Notes: generated from the letters alone by a model not told the origin. A stretch of 26,296 nt of DNA from Minisyncoccia bacterium (GCA_039809205.1 JBDHUQ010000001.1:1-26296); one strand, 5' to 3'. Positions 6,316 to 17,319 are shown, counted from the first letter of the stretch. A program made the numbers and translations.

Positions 6316-6370
6316 TAAAAAAATACACTAGGCTTTTTATTTAAATTGAGTTACCTAATCCTATTATTTG

Positions 6371-6455
6371 CGGAGGTGGTGAGATTCGAACTCACGGTCC
6401 GGTTAAGGACGACGGTTTAGTAAACCGTTGATTTAAACCACTCATCCACACCTCC
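6371..6455 (-). tRNA. tRNA-Ser with anticodon ACT (CCA not encoded)
   Basis: GGAGGTG/CACCTCC acceptor, G73, D-loop AGTGGTTTA, anticodon arm ACGGT-TTACTAA-ACCGT, long variable arm GTCC-TTAACC-GGAC, T-arm GTGAG-TTCGAAT-CTCAC. Confidence 0.93.
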
Positions 6456-9399: not shown

Positions 9400-11169
9400 A
9401 TGAAGAAAAATAAACCAGAAGCAAAAAATAAAGAAACCAGGCAAAAGGGCCAAAGAGGCCCAAGTGTTTTTTCTATTTTAGGTCCCTACAAAAAGATGAT
9501 TGCCCTTTTGATCAGTTTTGCACTTGCAACCAATGCTTTGAATCTATTCATTCCACGAATTATCTCCCGGAGTATTGATTCCTATATTTCCGGAACGCTT
9601 GTGGTCAGTCAGATGATATTGCAGTTCTCCATAGCCATGATATGTATCTTTGTTTTTCTTTATTTGCAAAGTATTGTACAAACATATGCTTCTGAGAGAG
9701 TAGCCAAAGATACGCGCACCAAGCTTTCAGCAAAAATTTCTCGCCTTCGCTATTCTGATATAGAAACTATCGGATCATCAAAGCTTCTGACTACACTTAC
9801 TTCTGATATTGATTCCATCAAAATGTTTGTGTCAATGGCAATAGCTTCGATTGTTTCTTCTTTGGTTGTCATTATTGGCGTTGCCGTCTTGCTTCTTACT
9901 ATTAATTGGCGACTTGCACTTGTCGTACTTGCTGTTATACCAGTTATTGGTTTTACCTTTGCCATTATTTTTTCTAAAGTGAAAGGTCTCTTTGGTAAGA
10001 CGAGAGAAGTAGTTGATAAGCTCAACAAGGTTATTAATGAAAGCATTCTTGGTGCAGCTATTATTCGAGTCGTGAATGCTCAGCAAGAACAATCTAGAAA
10101 ATTCCTTGAAGTAAATACGGAAGCTCGAAGCGTAGGTCTTTCTATCTTGGCACTTTTTGCTGCCCTGATTCCTATTATTACTTTTGTTTCTGGCTTAGCC
10201 ACTCTTGGCATCGTAGTTCTTGGAGGAAAATTTGTGATCGGTGGATCTATGACTCTTGGATCTTTTACTGCCTTTTATAGTTATGTTGGTATGTTGGTTT
10301 TTCCTATTATTATGATTGGTTTTATGAGTAACTTCATTGCACAAGCTTCAGCTTCATATGCTCGAGTCCAGGGTGTGATAGATACCACAGAGATTCCCCC
10401 AACTGGTATCAATAAAGCTGTTATTGCTGGAGATGTTGAAGTTAGACATCTTACTCAGACATATGGTGAGAAAACAGCACTTAAGGACGTCAGTTTCAAG
10501 GTAAAAGCTGGCACTAAAACAGCTATCATCGGTCCTACCGCAGCGGGGAAAAGTCAACTTCTATATATTCTTACTGGTCTTGTAATTCCAACAGAAGGAG
10601 AAGTGTTCTATGACGGCATAAAAATTACTGAGTACGACATAGAACATTTTCATGCCCAAGTCGCTTTGGTCTTTCAAGACAGTAGCATGTTCAATATGAG
10701 TATTAGAGAAAACATTGCCTTTAACACTTCCGTGACAGAAGAGTCTTTGAAGAAGGCGATTGAAACTGCTGAACTTGGAGATTTTATCAATACGCTCCCA
10801 CAAGGCCTCGACACTATTGTTTCAGAGCGCGGAACAAGTCTCTCTGGCGGACAAAAACAGCGTATTATGCTTGCTCGGGCACTCGCTATTAATCCAAAAG
10901 TTTTGCTACTTGACGATTTCACCGCTCGAGTTGATACAAAAACTGAAAAATCAATTCTCCAAAATATTTCTCAAAACTATCCAGAGCTTACGTTAATTTC
11001 AGTCACTCAAAAACTTGCAGCTATAGAAAACTATGACTCTATCGTTGTGTTAATGGAAGGGGAGCTCTTGGCACAAGGAACACATGCTGAGCTTATGAAT
11101 ACTTCGCCAGAATATGTTCAAATATATAACTCACAACAATCAACAAATGCTTATGAAGTACGCACTTAA
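9400..11169 (+). CDS. ABC exporter subunit (TMD+NBD) with degenerate catalytic motifs
   Basis: Six-helix TMD; Walker A GPTAAGKS, signature LSGGQKQR, Walker B LLLDD (E to D), switch TQK (H to Q). Confidence 0.93.
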   Translation: MKKNKPEAKNKETRQKGQRGPSVFSILGPYKKMIALLISFALATNALNLFIPRIISRSIDSYISGTLVVSQMILQFSIAMICIFVFLYLQSIVQTYASERVAKDTRTKLSAKISRLRYSDIETIGSSKLLTTLTSDIDSIKMFVSMAIASIVSSLVVIIGVAVLLLTINWRLALVVLAVIPVIGFTFAIIFSKVKGLFGKTREVVDKLNKVINESILGAAIIRVVNAQQEQSRKFLEVNTEARSVGLSILALFAALIPIITFVSGLATLGIVVLGGKFVIGGSMTLGSFTAFYSYVGMLVFPIIMIGFMSNFIAQASASYARVQGVIDTTEIPPTGINKAVIAGDVEVRHLTQTYGEKTALKDVSFKVKAGTKTAIIGPTAAGKSQLLYILTGLVIPTEGEVFYDGIKITEYDIEHFHAQVALVFQDSSMFNMSIRENIAFNTSVTEESLKKAIETAELGDFINTLPQGLDTIVSERGTSLSGGQKQRIMLARALAINPKVLLLDDFTARVDTKTEKSILQNISQNYPELTLISVTQKLAAIENYDSIVVLMEGELLAQGTHAELMNTSPEYVQIYNSQQSTNAYEVRT

Positions 11170-12919: not shown

Positions 12920-12933
12920 AATAAGGGTTAGAA

Positions 12934-12961
12934 AAAAGCCTGCTTATGGAGCAGAGCTTTT
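12934..12961. terminator. Probable bidirectional terminator between convergent genes
   Basis: aaaagc-ctgct-tatgg-agcag-a-gctttt imperfect hairpin with A and T flanks. Confidence 0.6.
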
Positions 12962-12963
12962 AG

Positions 12964-13374
12964 TTAATTCTTTTTGGTATATGTACCCGAGTAAGAAACT
13001 CCTTTCGACGTATCAATCTTAAGAGCGATACCAAGATCTTCAGCAAACAATTTGATAAGGTTAAGTCCTATACCAAAGTTCGTGCCAGGGTTGATTGAAC
13101 TCCAATTTTTTGCACAATCAGCAAGATTTACCGGCTCTGTACCATCATCCTTTATACAAAAGGTATATTGGGAACCAGCTTGTTCAATAAAAATAGATCC
13201 TTTTCCTCCTGCGTGATCAAAAATATTTTTTGCTATTTCATGGAGCAGCGCGTCTAATGTCATCTGTTCCTCAATAAAATCTATCACCTGAACACGGCTA
13301 GATTGTAAGAATTCGTCTCGGTCAAGTACAGTCCCATCAAATAATATATGGAGGGTCTTTTCTTGTTTTTTCAT
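12964..13374 (-). CDS. Stand-alone GHKL/HATPase_c-fold protein (anti-sigma-factor/Ser kinase-like)
   Basis: N box HEIAKNIFDHA, G1 box IKDDG, G2 box GIGLNLI in 136 aa; no HisKA domain seen. Confidence 0.75.
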   Translation of the reverse strand: MKKQEKTLHILFDGTVLDRDEFLQSSRVQVIDFIEEQMTLDALLHEIAKNIFDHAGGKGSIFIEQAGSQYTFCIKDDGTEPVNLADCAKNWSSINPGTNFGIGLNLIKLFAEDLGIALKIDTSKGVSYSGTYTKKN

Positions 13375-13435
13375 AAAGAAATACTTTGTTTCAAGTCACT
13401 TTAGTCCAACAATAAAAGAAAGTAAAGAGGTATTT

Positions 13436-13460
13436 GCGGTGTACTCGGGTATGGTACCCA
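13436..13460 (-). repeat. Degenerate tRNA-3'-end-like site E
   Basis: + strand GCGGTGTA-ctcgggtatg-GTACCCA; same GCGG-N16-AC frame as the tRNA-Ser 3' end and same GCGGTGTA-N10-GTACCCA as site C. Confidence 0.6.
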
Positions 13461-13503
13461 GACCGTCAATCTCCATAAGAACAGTTTTAGATAATTTCAG
13501 AGA

Positions 13504-14010
13504 TTAAACTGAGGATTGTGGGTCGCGAGAAGCAAAATATTTAAAGGTGAAAAGTGTACCCCAGACTATAATTATCAAACAGAAAAAATCTGCAATCCAC
13601 CAATATGGGCTATCAAACTTTCCAACCAGCCCATGAGTAAAAGTTACAGCTATATAATCTTCAAACACAAAATAAAAAGGTAGGACTGCCATAAAAGGGA
13701 CCACCCACTTGGGGTGTTTTGAATAAACCCACCAGTAAACTAAACAGAGACTTCCGCCGACAAAGAAGCTGACAGCGATATAGAAATCAAGGGGAAACCC
13801 AAGCACAAGTCCATTTGCGGTGTAATGCCAAAATCCATATTTCTGCTCAAAGAAATCTACGATCAGATTGAGGATTCCTGCGATCCAGCACATCCTAAAA
13901 ACAAGAGTTACCAAATATTTCGGAGCGCGAACCAATTTTGCTACAAGAAAAATACTGCCTGCTCCAGCAAAAATCAGCCCGACTCTTATAATTGTGATCA
14001 CTGACACCAC
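13504..14010 (-). CDS. Hypothetical multi-pass membrane protein
   Basis: 168-aa ORF, GTG start with TAAAAT 6 nt upstream, about five hydrophobic segments; no family recognised. Confidence 0.7.
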   Translation of the reverse strand: MVSVITIIRVGLIFAGAGSIFLVAKLVRAPKYLVTLVFRMCWIAGILNLIVDFFEQKYGFWHYTANGLVLGFPLDFYIAVSFFVGGSLCLVYWWVYSKHPKWVVPFMAVLPFYFVFEDYIAVTFTHGLVGKFDSPYWWIADFFCLIIIVWGTLFTFKYFASRDPQSSV

Positions 14011-14016
14011 TTAACA

Positions 14017-14116
14017 ATTTTAGCTTACTTACGCGAGTTTAGGTACTCGGGTCTGCCGATAAAAAGTTCTTACTGCGGGCCACTCGGGATTCAAACTTTC
14101 AAGCTCAAGCCCTGTA
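14017..14116 (-). repeat. Cassette-head repeat A (promoter + conserved spacer + degenerate tRNA 3' half)
   Basis: 14049-14103 aligns without gaps to 17204-17258 (34/55 identical, including 13-bp gggtctgccgata and gggattc.aac); colinear with repeat B. Confidence 0.85.
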
Positions 14117-14184
14117 GGGGTTTCTTGGAAAATTTTGGTAACTAATTTTGAGGCACATGAGTCTAGTTGATATATAATATCTTC

Positions 14185-14931
14185 ATGGAAAACGAAGAAT
14201 TCACACTTGGAGATCTCCTAAACAGAGAACATGAGCTTGTTTTGACTGCAATGCAAGAAAATAGATATTTTATTCATGCCGAAAACATGGTCACTCTTTT
14301 GAATAACGTAGTCCATACTGTTGATAGGCCACTGAGGATATTTTTCTTTCAGTTTTTGTCTCAAGTAAGGAATCACTTAACACTAGCACTTTTCTCAAAT
14401 GCTCGACTTCATTATGTACAAGCTGGTATGAACTTGCGACAAGTACTTGAAGCGGGAGCATGGGCGGCATATGGCATGGCTCACGAGGAAAGCACGCTTT
14501 TCTATACTGAACAAGATGGACGAATCACAACTCCAGAAAATTTAAGTCGAGCGAGAAATACTTGGCTTAATACAAACTACCCAGAAAAATCAGAAACGAT
14601 AAGGAACCTTAAAAATAATTTGAATGAATCCGTTGCCCATTCAAATGTCACATACACGACGATGAATTTTGGTTTTAATGATGGAGTTACTCCTGGGTTT
14701 ATAACTTCTTTTTTTGATTCTGAGGATGGATTCCAGATGAATATGGGATTGCTTGCAACTGCCAATTTCGCAATGGGGATGATTGATTTATTTGTAACTA
14801 TTAACCAAAATGAACATGTGTTTCAGACACCAGAAGGTTTTGCTGAGCAATTTATCAATCTGGTACAAGAACATAATTCATTGCGTAGAGAAATGGAAAA
14901 TCATCCGCGCTTGAGACAAGCAAGGCAGTAA
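14185..14931 (+). CDS. Hypothetical protein, possibly HEPN/DUF5677-like helical fold
   Basis: ATG 14185 with TATAAT 6 nt upstream; LRQVLEAGAWAAY and LNESVAHSN resemble the R..lE and late ..H motifs of DUF5677/HEPN-like families (recognition by eye only). Confidence 0.6.
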   Translation: MENEEFTLGDLLNREHELVLTAMQENRYFIHAENMVTLLNNVVHTVDRPLRIFFFQFLSQVRNHLTLALFSNARLHYVQAGMNLRQVLEAGAWAAYGMAHEESTLFYTEQDGRITTPENLSRARNTWLNTNYPEKSETIRNLKNNLNESVAHSNVTYTTMNFGFNDGVTPGFITSFFDSEDGFQMNMGLLATANFAMGMIDLFVTINQNEHVFQTPEGFAEQFINLVQEHNSLRREMENHPRLRQARQ

Positions 14932-14936
14932 ATTTT

Positions 14937-15524
14937 CTATTTTAAAAATATTACTTTTACTACAAAAGTAATCACCCCTAAAATACCGAGGATAATTCCT
15001 AGTTTTCCCCAAAGTTGACCTGCCCCAAAAGACATATCTCTAACTTTTTCTTTCGTTCTTTGAAAAGCAATTACAGGACCAACCGATAATAGACTAATCG
15101 CAATTCCAATGAGTGCACCCCAACGAGCACTTCTTAAGAAACTTGCATTAAAAATGCTTGCCCATATACCGACTACAAGCGCATAAAGTATTATGTAGAA
15201 GAATGAATCCCAAATAGCTGTCCCTACCGCCTGACTTCTCGAAATAGAAGTGCCCACTGCATTTATTCTTTCCCCGAGCTCTCTTATGGTCTCTGGATCA
15301 TTAGTATTTTTACCCTGAGACTCTGCGTCGGCAATCATTTTGTCGGCAAGGTTAGCCTTCATTTGTAGCGTCTCTAAAAGGAAAATATTGCTGTCTTTTA
15401 TATCTGTAAGATTTTCCAATCCTAATTTGGCAGCGCGATATTTACCATTTATAGCATTATCTCTGGAGTAGATATCGGCCTTAATAAGTGCACCCTTTTC
15501 CTTAAGATTCTCGACTTTTTTCAT
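14937..15524 (-). CDS. Hypothetical protein, soluble N-terminus and three C-terminal transmembrane helices
   Basis: 195-aa ORF; TAGAAT 6 nt before ATG; hydrophobic segments in the C-terminal half. Confidence 0.7.
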   Translation of the reverse strand: MKKVENLKEKGALIKADIYSRDNAINGKYRAAKLGLENLTDIKDSNIFLLETLQMKANLADKMIADAESQGKNTNDPETIRELGERINAVGTSISRSQAVGTAIWDSFFYIILYALVVGIWASIFNASFLRSARWGALIGIAISLLSVGPVIAFQRTKEKVRDMSFGAGQLWGKLGIILGILGVITFVVKVIFLK

Positions 15525-15530
15525 AATTCA

Positions 15531-15632
15531 ATTCTAGCTTAAAAAGACCTTTTAAGGTACTCGGGTCATGCCGATAACAGGTTCTTAATGCGGAGAGCCT
15601 CGTGTTGGAACTTTTCTCGGACAAGCCCTGTA
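15531..15632 (-). repeat. Cassette-head repeat B
   Basis: Shares aggtactcgggtc, tgccgataa, gttctta, tgcgg, aacttt and caagccctgta with repeat A in the same order and nearly the same spacing; gcggaga matches the tRNA acceptor end. Confidence 0.85.
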
Positions 15633-15682
15633 AGGTTGATTTCAGACATTTCGAGAAATTAAGATAACGCGTCTCGTGCAGA

Positions 15683-16237
15683 CTAGCCTCTCGATGATTT
15701 TCTAAACTCATCAAACTTTTCTTTCAACGAATCAAAATCTGTAATTCCAAGATCCCAAGAGTCCAAGCCTTCAGCGACCACAGTAAAGCCATCTTTTTGA
15801 ATATCCGCTCCCACTGTTTGCCATTGTGGCTCGATGATTTCCCAACCTTTTGCTTTGTCGTATACACCAACAAAAATATGTCCATCGTTGTTTTCAAAAT
15901 TCTCCAATCCTTTGGTCTGTATCGTCTCAATATACTTTGCAGGGATGCCTGCAGCTCGGGCAAGAGCAATAAATGCTAACCCTTCATCTGTGCACCCTGT
16001 AATAAAGCCATCTTCTATAATCTGATCCGCTGTTCTTTTTCTAAAGATCTCGCGCTTGTTAGTTTGATCCATCCGTAGGTTTTTGATGTATTGAAATATA
16101 CCCTCAATTTTCTCTTCGAACGATCCATTAAAAGAAGATGCGGCCTCCCTGATTCTCGAAGTGATAATTGTCTGCTCGCCAGACTGCAAGTAGCGCTGGA
16201 CTTCGGGACTGTACGGTGATGTTTCCATTGATTCCAT
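15683..16237 (-). CDS. Transglutaminase-like (papain-fold) protein
   Basis: GCTDEGLAFIALARAAGIPAKYI, GHIFVGVY, GWEIIEP: Cys-His-acid triad with Glu at the usual Asp position. Confidence 0.85.
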   Translation of the reverse strand: MESMETSPYSPEVQRYLQSGEQTIITSRIREAASSFNGSFEEKIEGIFQYIKNLRMDQTNKREIFRKRTADQIIEDGFITGCTDEGLAFIALARAAGIPAKYIETIQTKGLENFENNDGHIFVGVYDKAKGWEIIEPQWQTVGADIQKDGFTVVAEGLDSWDLGITDFDSLKEKFDEFRKSSRG

Positions 16238-16290
16238 AATCCAATTATATCAGAATGCTTTCTTTTAAAGTGTCTCGTGCTATCTGTTAA

Positions 16291-16317
16291 TGGCGGTGTA
16301 TGTGAGTTAAGTACCCA
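16291..16317 (-). repeat. Degenerate tRNA-3'-end-like site C
   Basis: + strand TGGCGGTGTA-tgtgagttaa-GTACCCA; TGGCGG equals the reverse complement of the tRNA CCGCCA end; GCGG-N16-AC frame. Confidence 0.6.
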
Positions 16318-16386
16318 CGCTATCAATGTTAATAAGGGTATTTTAGCGAGGTTTTGGGTATTGAAACAAGGTGTGTGGGTCGGGGT

Positions 16387-17130
16387 CTATAAATCAATTT
16401 CTACAAAAAGTGCTGCGTGATCTGAAACCTCTTCTTCGCACACTGCAAAACTGAGCACCCTTATATCAAGGGAAGCAAAAATGTAGTCCGCAAATTTTCC
16501 AGATGTTTCCGATCTAGTATAAAAAGAGGTTCTTGTAGAGGTCACATTATTCATTTTCACCAAATCTTGCATTCCTTCCGCCAAAATAGAAAGGGATTCT
16601 GTTTCTGGAAGCAGATTAAAATCCCCGCAAATTATTTGAGACCCTTTTATTGAATTCATAAAATCCCTGATTCGTCTTGATTGCTCATTTCTTTCAGGAG
16701 TATCTGTCTTTCCCTTACCATTCCATAGTCCATGGACATTCAAAATAGATAACTGCTTTCCATTTATACCAATCTCATGCCAAAGGGCTTTTCTTGAGTG
16801 GTTTCCGCCTTTTCCGTCGTATTCTGGATTATCGTAAATTGTAATATCTCCAGACGCTTCGATATAGAGATCTTTTCTTATGAAGGTTGCAATTCCATAG
16901 TAATCGCCAACATTCGGGCAAAAGTATCCGTTGTGATTGGGTAACAAAGATTTTATTTCATTGAAAAGATCTAGATGGGCACCATCGAAATCGCCTTTAG
17001 TTTTATCCGCCGCGTCGTGATATATTTCTTGGAAGCAAAATATATCAACATTATTTCCGTGTTTTTTAACAAAAGACATAAGAGGTTCTCTTACTCTTCC
17101 TCCCCATGTGTTTAAAGTGATTATTTTCAT
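16387..17130 (-). CDS. Endonuclease/exonuclease/phosphatase (EEP) family protein
   Basis: ITLN, DIFCFQEI, NVHG, IICGDFN, DYIF, SDH catalytic motifs. Confidence 0.93.
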   Translation of the reverse strand: MKIITLNTWGGRVREPLMSFVKKHGNNVDIFCFQEIYHDAADKTKGDFDGAHLDLFNEIKSLLPNHNGYFCPNVGDYYGIATFIRKDLYIEASGDITIYDNPEYDGKGGNHSRKALWHEIGINGKQLSILNVHGLWNGKGKTDTPERNEQSRRIRDFMNSIKGSQIICGDFNLLPETESLSILAEGMQDLVKMNNVTSTRTSFYTRSETSGKFADYIFASLDIRVLSFAVCEEEVSDHAALFVEIDL

Positions 17131-17227
17131 AATTAAATATTAGCTTAATATTCAATATTTGTGTAATAAATGATTTAGGGTCGCCCCACATGTCTAATCC
17201 TGTGGGTCTGCCGATACTTTATTTTCT

Positions 17228-17319
17228 TGGCGGAGACGGAGGGATTCGAACCCTCGAGGGGGTATAAAGCCCCTGCCTCTTTAGCAAAGAGGTACGTTAG
17301 ACCACTCTGACACGTCTCC
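17228..17319 (-). tRNA. tRNA-Ser(GCT), CCA encoded
   Basis: GGAGACG/CGTCTCC acceptor, G73-CCA, anticodon arm CCTCT-TTGCTAA-AGAGG, long variable arm, T-arm GAGGG-TTCGAAT-CCCTC. Confidence 0.96.

Follow-up and report, generated by a model that had tools for sequence, protein, structure and literature searches.

The subject of this analysis is a contig of 26,296 nucleotides from a Minisyncoccia bacterium (GCA_039809205.1, JBDHUQ010000001.1:1-26296), which was studied at its full length and is called the window below. We consider it quite probable that positions 12921-17233 hold four miniature integrative modules without an integrase and one terminal unit, arranged in tandem at the 3' end of a tRNA-Ser(GCT) gene and belonging to a family of elements with large serine recombinases (LSRs). 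Each module is read as starting with a head (the right attachment, or att, arm) and a -10-like box, followed by one or two genes and closed by a tRNA-Ser-like repeat of about 95 nt, termed EL (the left att arm), which ends in CCGC. Comparison of contigs from other strains and species reveals variation of whole modules at the strain level, the signature of one inter-species transfer, and linkage of LSR elements to the same cores. The window is the entire contig C1 of a 504-kb genome (G000; 56 contigs, 37% G+C), and its source organism turns up frequently in data sets from wastewater and activated sludge.

An original prediction, made from the window alone, had proposed that one- or two-gene cassettes were acquired serially at this tRNA gene, each headed by a displaced copy of the tRNA 3' end. 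The idea of serial acquisition is supported here, with one correction: the sites are att arms borne by the elements, not displaced ends of the host tRNA, with which they have only the 4-nt CCGC in common, and the arm of about 95 nt travels with the upstream gene. The five sites of the form GCGG-N16-AC on which the proposal was built are indeed present at 13436, 14075, 15590, 16293 and 17230, and both their spacings (937, 703, 1515 and 639 bp) and their distances to the next minus-strand start (99, 55, 65, 64 and 61 nt) are correct. The window contains nine matches to this pattern against 2.41 +/- 1.69 expected, a number reached by 0 of 100 shuffles; the nine comprise the five sites, a second tRNA-Ser end (6370) and three unrelated matches.

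Breakpoints at the CCGC cores

The array is anchored by the tRNA-Ser(GCT) gene itself (17228-17319, minus strand, called by ARAGORN), in which the first CCGC core corresponds to C71-C72-G73-C74 of the tRNA, at 17233-17230. Contigs carrying ComF and PilM end at 17228, while contigs carrying the cassettes start at 17233. Variable cassette content with breakpoints at the sites had been named beforehand as a check on the proposal, and it is seen across both strains and species: four of the five sites are real breakpoints.

The module nearest the tRNA encodes an EEP protein. Exactly this protein is found on more than 23 public contigs. Of the ten contexts shown, two run colinear with the window; matches in the remaining eight extend only from 17233 or 17260 to 16293 and comprise 941 bp at 100% identity or 968 bp at 99.4%. 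One of these contexts has the module behind a tRNA-Ser(GGA) gene, downstream of genes for SecD, SecF, LemA and an M48 peptidase, and these four proteins are 54-64% identical to those of G000. The host is therefore a different species, and the transfer of the module was recent. In another context the module lies behind the far end of a serine-recombinase element. The left arms that precede the EEP module (tRNA-Ser GCT, tRNA-Ser GGA and two different arms of the LSR-A type described below) have no homology beyond CCGC.

The other cores behave similarly. The cassette with the transglutaminase-like gene is 100% identical from 16296 or 16299 to 15590 in three contigs (L055, L056, L061), which diverge afterwards. 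A sister strain shares this cassette at the same identity and has ABC genes with 98.5% identity; between 15590 and those ABC genes it carries cassettes with DUF4440, ART-PolyVal and DUF1761 genes, each of the three with its own head and EL. In L055 identity with the window returns only at 12921, and the sister strain has DUF1761 in place of the terminal unit. A contig with the gene for a 195-aa protein (L066) has no relation to the window as far as 15593 and matches it at 100% from there on, and two further contigs (L071, L072) begin at 13439. Contigs from RNA libraries cover 16293-17161 without a mismatch; the match stops exactly at 16293 and is followed by other sequence. In the RNA-library runs X25-X27, the EEP gene and its EL are covered and the other cassettes barely so. 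The EEP gene is probably expressed and transcribed through the EL, with carry-over of DNA as another possible source of these contigs.

In every comparison the left arms differ up to the base preceding CCGC and the right arms differ from the base following it; the junctions place strand exchange within these 4 bp (tRNA positions 71-74). Mixed junctions, all of them at CCGC, are found with tRNA-Ser genes (GCT, GGA, TGA, ACT), ELs and LSR-A arms on the left, and with cassette heads and LSR-A arms on the right.

Could the variant contexts be artefacts of assembly or binning, chimeric contigs that were joined at shared tRNA-like repeats? The same junctions recur in assemblies made independently and by different assemblers, namely a metagenome-assembled genome (MAG) from NCBI, ENA metaSPAdes contigs from several samples and Logan contigs from several studies, and variant contigs have 4-6 kb of coherent flank on each side. 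Metagenome contigs do often break or mis-join at repeats, and many of the Logan contigs simply end at cores, but the ELs and heads have no exact repeat of 31 nt or more in common within the genome. An artefactual origin is barely credible on this evidence.

Anatomy of the modules and of the EL repeat

Cassette 1 (16293-17233, minus strand) holds the EEP gene (16387-17130) and the EL called B2 (16289-16385, core 16293-16296); its head, at about 17196-17229, reads CA AGAAAATAAAG TATCGGCA GACCC, and TAATAT stands 6 nt before the ATG. Cassette 2 (15590-16296, minus strand) holds the transglutaminase-like gene (15683-16237) and EL A2 (15587-15683, core 15590-15593). Its head (16256-16292) is atypical and contains GCACGAGACAC, with TATAAT 6 nt before the ATG. 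Cassette 3 (14075-15593, minus strand) has two genes, one for the 195-aa protein (14937-15524, minus strand) and a convergent one for a 248-aa protein (14185-14931, plus strand), followed by EL A1 (14071-14167, core 14075-14078); its head (15555-15589) reads ATTAAGAAC..TATCGGCAT GACCCGAG, with TAGAAT 6 nt before the ATG. Cassette 4 (13436-14078, minus strand), recognized by both nhmmer and covariance-model matches, holds a gene for a 167/168-aa protein (13504-14010), the last codons of which are overlapped by EL B1 (13432-13528, core 13436-13439). Here the head (14040-14074) reads AGTAAGAAC..TATCGGCA GACCCGAG, and TAAAAT lies 6 nt before the GTG. The terminal unit (12921-13435, minus strand) consists of the gene for a 136-aa HATPase-like protein (12964-13374) and a shared terminator hairpin at 12939-12955, found by a terminator scan.

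In general terms, a head consists of CA or A, about 11 A-rich nucleotides, and TATCGG followed by a GACCC box (AAGAA..TATCGG..GACCC), and it stands after the tRNA end and after three of the four ELs in the window. A TAnAAT box is found exactly 6 nt before the starts of the genes of cassettes 1-4 and of the plus-strand gene for the 248-aa protein, an arrangement that suggests leaderless transcripts. A scan for the sigma-70 -35/-10 consensus gave fewer matches than shuffled sequence, and none at the heads.

The gene assignments of the original prediction held in part. Pfam searches bear out the EEP (PF03372, 1e-17) and transglutaminase-like (PF01841, 2e-10) calls, while the HATPase call falls under the cut-off (22.8 against 26.4 bits) and the 248-aa protein, predicted to be HEPN-like, and both predicted membrane proteins match no Pfam family above the cut-off. 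PADLOC assigns no defence family to any of the cargo proteins. Synteny comparison indicates that ComF, PilM and the tRNA are conserved across relatives, and in the same comparison none of the six array genes was found 3' of the tRNA. Homologues of the EEP protein with 40-46% identity occur in two relatives (L035/L036, from G014 and G003) directly downstream of an ABC-transporter gene and without an EL, which gives the mobile EEP cassette chromosomal counterparts within the genus. The second tRNA-Ser gene of the window, with anticodon ACT (6370-6455, minus strand, ARAGORN), has A34; it is paired with a canonical tRNA-Ser(GCT) in at least five further genomes of the genus (L022, L024, L025, L026, L027), and in G020 it is itself the target of an LSR-A element.

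Each of the intergenic sites turns out to be the 3' tip of the homologous repeat EL. The genome has five copies, four in the window and one at C4:10501-10595, as found with nhmmer and a sequence-only covariance model. Of 51 genomes of the genus, 24 contain homologues, with 1-6 in each, and other families of the order have them too; 17 ELs from the genus and the order align over 97 nt without any gap. In its 3' third the repeat follows tRNA geometry, with a 5-bp stem and a 7-nt loop followed by 5+7 nt, G and CCA, and the sequence shared with the tRNA is the 4-nt core CCGC only. The original prediction had aligned one copy (Copy A) with the tRNA end and its downstream flank; the alignment is gapless as claimed, with 32 of 59 positions identical and not 34 of 55, and it includes an exact 13-nt block, TATCGGCAGACCC, in register.

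Several other identities were considered for the EL. A full tRNA pseudogene is suggested by the fragments TGCTAA and GAGACGCGT and by the T-arm geometry, and was rejected for want of statistical support: neither the tRNA covariance model nor Rfam (RF00005) gives a match on the ELs even at E <= 10, ARAGORN calls none, and when a profile of EL plus flank is set against the tRNA, the match reaches no better than E=0.25 and is confined to the 3' part and the flank. A coding sequence was rejected for both strands, with stops in all frames and no codon periodicity. Paralogy of the cassette genes was rejected as the source of the repeat, the genes showing no mutual similarity. A structured RNA or riboswitch was likewise rejected, with no Rfam match and no RNAalifold consensus fold on either strand.

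A hairpin at EL columns 64-73/79-86 is weak. Complementarity with covariation links a 5' box (columns 6-13) to columns 66-73, which form the 5' strand of the T-arm-like stem (alignment A6): 65% of cells are paired, a level that 0 of 500 shuffles reached, against 54% in the shuffles and no more than 37% in slid controls. The 3' box repeats the 5' box directly, the EL boxes being direct and not inverted repeats, and the two may represent alternative pairing or protein sites. This covariation, together with the length and sequence blocks kept across genus and order, the apparent transcription of the EL behind the EEP gene and the position of the locus beside ComF and pilus genes, is the case for a quite different reading, in which the ELs are regulatory or structured-RNA elements and strains differ through homologous recombination or transformation at EL homology, without a site-specific enzyme. 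We judge that reading distinctly unlikely: the fold and Rfam searches found no shared structure, the left arms of the EEP module have no homology beyond CCGC, the right arms diverge at the first base after it, and in two of the three intact elements described below the head and the EL are the only copies in their genomes and coincide with the element ends.

Large serine recombinases and intact elements

If the array is built by site-specific recombination, where is the enzyme? The window lacks one, as the original prediction had noted: matches to PF00589 and PF00239 are confined to contigs C2, C4 and C17. The only PF00589 protein of the genome is a 304-aa Xer-type recombinase on C2, far from any such site. 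The suggestion that a recombinase acts in trans is borne out to the extent that candidates exist, namely two large serine recombinases, LSR-A (C17:359-1936) and LSR-B (C4:576-2003, minus strand), each with Resolvase, Recombinase and Zn_ribbon_recom domains. We consider LSR-B the likely cognate enzyme of the cassettes.

The evidence for a link to LSR-B comes from the heads. Among GTDB species representatives, 115 stretches contain a 23-nt head motif, where a rough estimate of our own gives about 0.5 by chance, and nearly all of these stretches are labelled as Patescibacteria or Paceibacteria lineages. From the 80 loci that were fetched we obtained 82 left arms, of which 41 are called tRNA-Ser genes with five different anticodons, at least 9 are ELs and at least 4 are LSR-A arms. 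Sixteen loci hold an LSR gene. In 15 of them the gene lies on the strand opposite to the head, 0.8-6.3 kb downstream of it, and its product is 59-76% identical to the LSR on C4.

In three genomes the element is intact. In G067 a head follows tRNA-Ser(GCT) and lies 15.2 kb from an EL, in G068 a head follows tRNA-Ser(GGA) at 19.3 kb from an EL, and in G069 a head follows tRNA-Ser(GCT) at 13.7 kb. In all three, LSR-B lies between head and EL on one contig and one strand, and the EL ends in CCGC and is followed by unrelated flank. The genomes of G067 and G069 have one head and one EL each, and that of G068 has one head and three ELs. With LSR-B between them in these intact elements, the head and the EL form the left and right ends, respectively, of LSR-B elements. 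As for cargo, the 13.7-kb element of G069 (L194, G069:C23:1-14078) encodes a GNAT protein, a Fic/DOC protein, a 569-aa protein without assigned function and a complete type I restriction-modification system (HsdM, HsdS, HsdR), and is a defence-type island without conjugation or phage genes.

The region that holds LSR-B in G000 itself, C4:1-10595 (L029, L020), is probably the right part of an LSR-B element with the EL at 10501-10595 as its right end. Apart from the LSR gene it contains a ParB_N plus N6_N4 methylase gene and open reading frames with weak similarity to small and large terminases. Beyond its EL lie DoxX, a 151-aa protein and tRNA-Arg(GCG), and the order EL, 151-aa protein, tRNA-Arg is syntenic in G005, G012 and G025; the EL of G012 is the second one downstream of a tRNA-Ser(TGA). 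Another, richer cassette array was seen in the Patescibacteria MAG G071 (L108, L116, L131, L133), four contigs of which contain six ELs and as many exact head motifs, including arrays at a spacing of 0.8-1 kb.

LSR-A abuts tRNA-Ser(TGA), and a similar flank follows tRNA-Ser(GCT), (ACT) and (TGA) in relatives. LSR-A elements terminate at their far end in an arm, TTCGAAy-N15/16-CCGC, which in other samples is joined to the heads of the EEP, transglutaminase-like and 195-aa-protein cassettes; LSR-A elements therefore integrate at tRNA genes and ELs alike. In addition, the att arm of LSR-A elements recurs in inverted orientation on either side of the LSR-A gene (C17:42-1955/L030; L045, 1467-1650 and 5876; L011, 1327 and 3878). 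The arm and 30-40 nt of identical upstream sequence bracket cargo in inverted orientation (4.2 kb in L045, about 2.5 kb in L011), and a complete arm-CCGC-arm site, a mirror image, lies inside an LSR-A element. These mirrored arms may reflect site-specific inversion, if the crossover takes place at the palindromic CG.

In short co-oriented cassettes with a repeat after each gene, the locus resembles an integron or a classical tRNA island, made by a tyrosine integrase and marked by displaced copies of the tRNA 3' end; tRNA 3' ends are classic targets of tyrosine integrases. Such an origin is nevertheless very improbable, given that the sole tyrosine-type protein is the distant Xer-type recombinase on C2, that intact elements hold LSR genes and not genes for tyrosine recombinases, that the repeats have only 4 nt in common with the tRNA and arrive with the cassette, and that they form no attC-like imperfect palindrome. 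The likeness to integrons that the original prediction had noted holds for the behaviour of the array, but not for the enzyme or the site, as there is neither IntI nor an attC-type palindrome. What the comparisons do contain is what one finds in families of LSR elements: an LSR in the complete members, a short core in common with the 3' end of the target, and recombinase-less members that, judged by their junctions, move.

Another possibility is that the array is a graveyard, in which full-size LSR elements integrated serially and then decayed in place to a head, a gene and an EL, leaving the miniature modules as immobile scars. The intact relatives of 14-19 kb do have the same ends, decayed att remnants without an LSR gene lie beside the EEP module in L043, and the circle junction of a mobile module was not found in JGI metagenome contigs. 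Two species, however, carry an identical 0.94-kb module at different tRNA-Ser genes, with both of its ends intact, which independent decay cannot explain. Between flanks that are identical, the sister strain differs by whole modules, and several modules keep tidy heads, with the -10-like box placed exactly 6 nt ahead of the start codon. We regard the graveyard explanation as unlikely.

Under the interpretation preferred here, a mobile array of the LSR family, attP would be EL-CCGC-head and attB would be the tRNA-Ser 3' end-CCGC-flank. The window's modules would belong to the LSR-B family as members without an integrase, mobilized in trans or in cis, and serine recombinases supplied in trans, with LSR-B and LSR-A as candidates, would insert them, exchange them and carry them between genomes. 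Transfer could take place through small circles, or through accretion and cis-mobilization together with a complete element integrated at a neighbouring core. In the case of accretion, an LSR-A element that had entered EL B2 or the tRNA would excise together with the EEP module and would then integrate through the junction of arm and EEP head into the tRNA-Ser(GGA) of a new host. This scheme would reproduce the order seen, namely tRNA, EEP module, EL B2 and LSR-A remnant. The outcome of such transfers would be accessory genes that vary at the strain level.

A number of observations weigh against this interpretation or limit it. Recombination is read here from junction sequences, and LSR-A, LSR-B or both may move the miniature modules, either singly or only in company with a full element. 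The gene for LSR-B on C4 is probably part of a different island, C4:1-10595. Serine integrases have a 5-bp offset between the half-sites of attP and attB. The distance from the EL to the core is that of the tRNA, without such an offset, which the LSR-A arm does show. The head of the transglutaminase-like cassette lacks TATCGG, and the terminal unit has neither a TATCGG head nor an EL and is strain-variable all the same. The core at 14075, with the same anatomy as the others, shows no variant in the contigs compared. Since Logan contigs break at any graph branch, contig ends by themselves are weak evidence, and divergent continuations are stronger. Finally, a search for excised-circle or empty-site junctions, as the original prediction had proposed, gave 0 matches in the JGI metagenome contigs, both for the circle junction of the EEP cassette and for an EEP-less junction between the tRNA and the head of the transglutaminase-like cassette.

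A bolder version of the model would make the locus a "serine integron", in which single cassettes of 0.6-1.5 kb, each made up of head, promoter, gene and tRNA-Ser-like tail, excise as EL-CCGC-head circles and an LSR acting in trans inserts or exchanges them at any tRNA-Ser gene or resident EL. We put this forward tentatively, as a possibility with somewhat less than an even chance. If true, it would be a means of gene capture functionally equal to integrons, with a different enzyme and a tRNA-mimicking site, and widespread in Patescibacteria.

Significance and comparison with known systems

Patescibacteria (the Candidate Phyla Radiation, CPR) have very small genomes, and their routes of gene exchange are little known. 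The locus described here is a concrete and widespread candidate for such a route, with full-size and miniature stacked forms at tRNA-Ser ends and with a 0.94-kb module at 99.4-100% identity common to species whose core proteins are about 60% identical. Such arrays also explain contig breaks at tRNA-Ser genes in CPR MAGs. The pair formed by EL-CCGC-head and the tRNA-Ser 3' end is a candidate natural attP/attB pair that could provide integration tools for organisms with almost no genetics, and the new large serine recombinases could be of use in genome engineering. A search of the literature on Patescibacteria or CPR with serine recombinases, integrons or integrative elements found no description of such arrays.

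The closest parallel is provided by the ssrA islands of Dehalococcoides, which stand in tandem downstream of a tRNA-like gene, each bounded by a 3'-end repeat (McMurdie et al. 2011, PMC3146451). Their integrase is a serine recombinase of about 540 aa, encoded on the reverse strand beside attL, and 15 of the islands lack the integration module and are proposed to be cis-mobilizable by accretion, in a region that is highly variable between strains (PMC3146451). The differences lie in the target, which is ssrA there and tRNA-Ser genes here (41 of the 82 left arms, with five anticodons), and in the core, which is a 20-bp repeat in the T-loop there and 4 nt at positions 71-74 here. The modules of the present array are also compact, with 0.6-1.5 kb, one or two genes, a fixed head and a tRNA-like tail of about 95 nt; a second small recombinase of the DsiA/CcrA type was not seen here, and the host belongs to the Patescibacteria.

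Like the staphylococcal cassette chromosome (SCC), the system described here involves LSR-driven cassettes at the 3' end of a conserved gene, movement between species, and tandem composites that include recombinase-less members (the ccr-less pseudo-SCC elements) bounded by att repeats. SCC and SCCmec elements use the large serine recombinases CcrAB or CcrC, have a protein gene, rlmH (orfX), as their target, and measure 20-60 kb, and they have neither the tRNA-mimicking arm nor the single-gene modules seen here. In the accretion model of cis-mobilizable elements (CIMEs), developed for ICESt1/ICESt3, integrase-less units flanked by att sites can join and excise with a complete element that integrates at one of their att sites. 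The junctions between LSR-A arm and EEP head and between EL B2 and LSR-A arm fit this model, but CIMEs depend on tyrosine integrases and conjugative elements, whereas no conjugation genes were seen here. The comparison with integrons is instructive as well. As in integrons, compact and mostly co-oriented one-gene cassettes, each with its own 3' recombination site, are collected at one chromosomal site with strain-variable content. Unlike integrons, the array has no IntI, no attC hairpin and no attI or Pc; its genes have their own -10-like boxes, and its recombination site derives from or mimics a tRNA.

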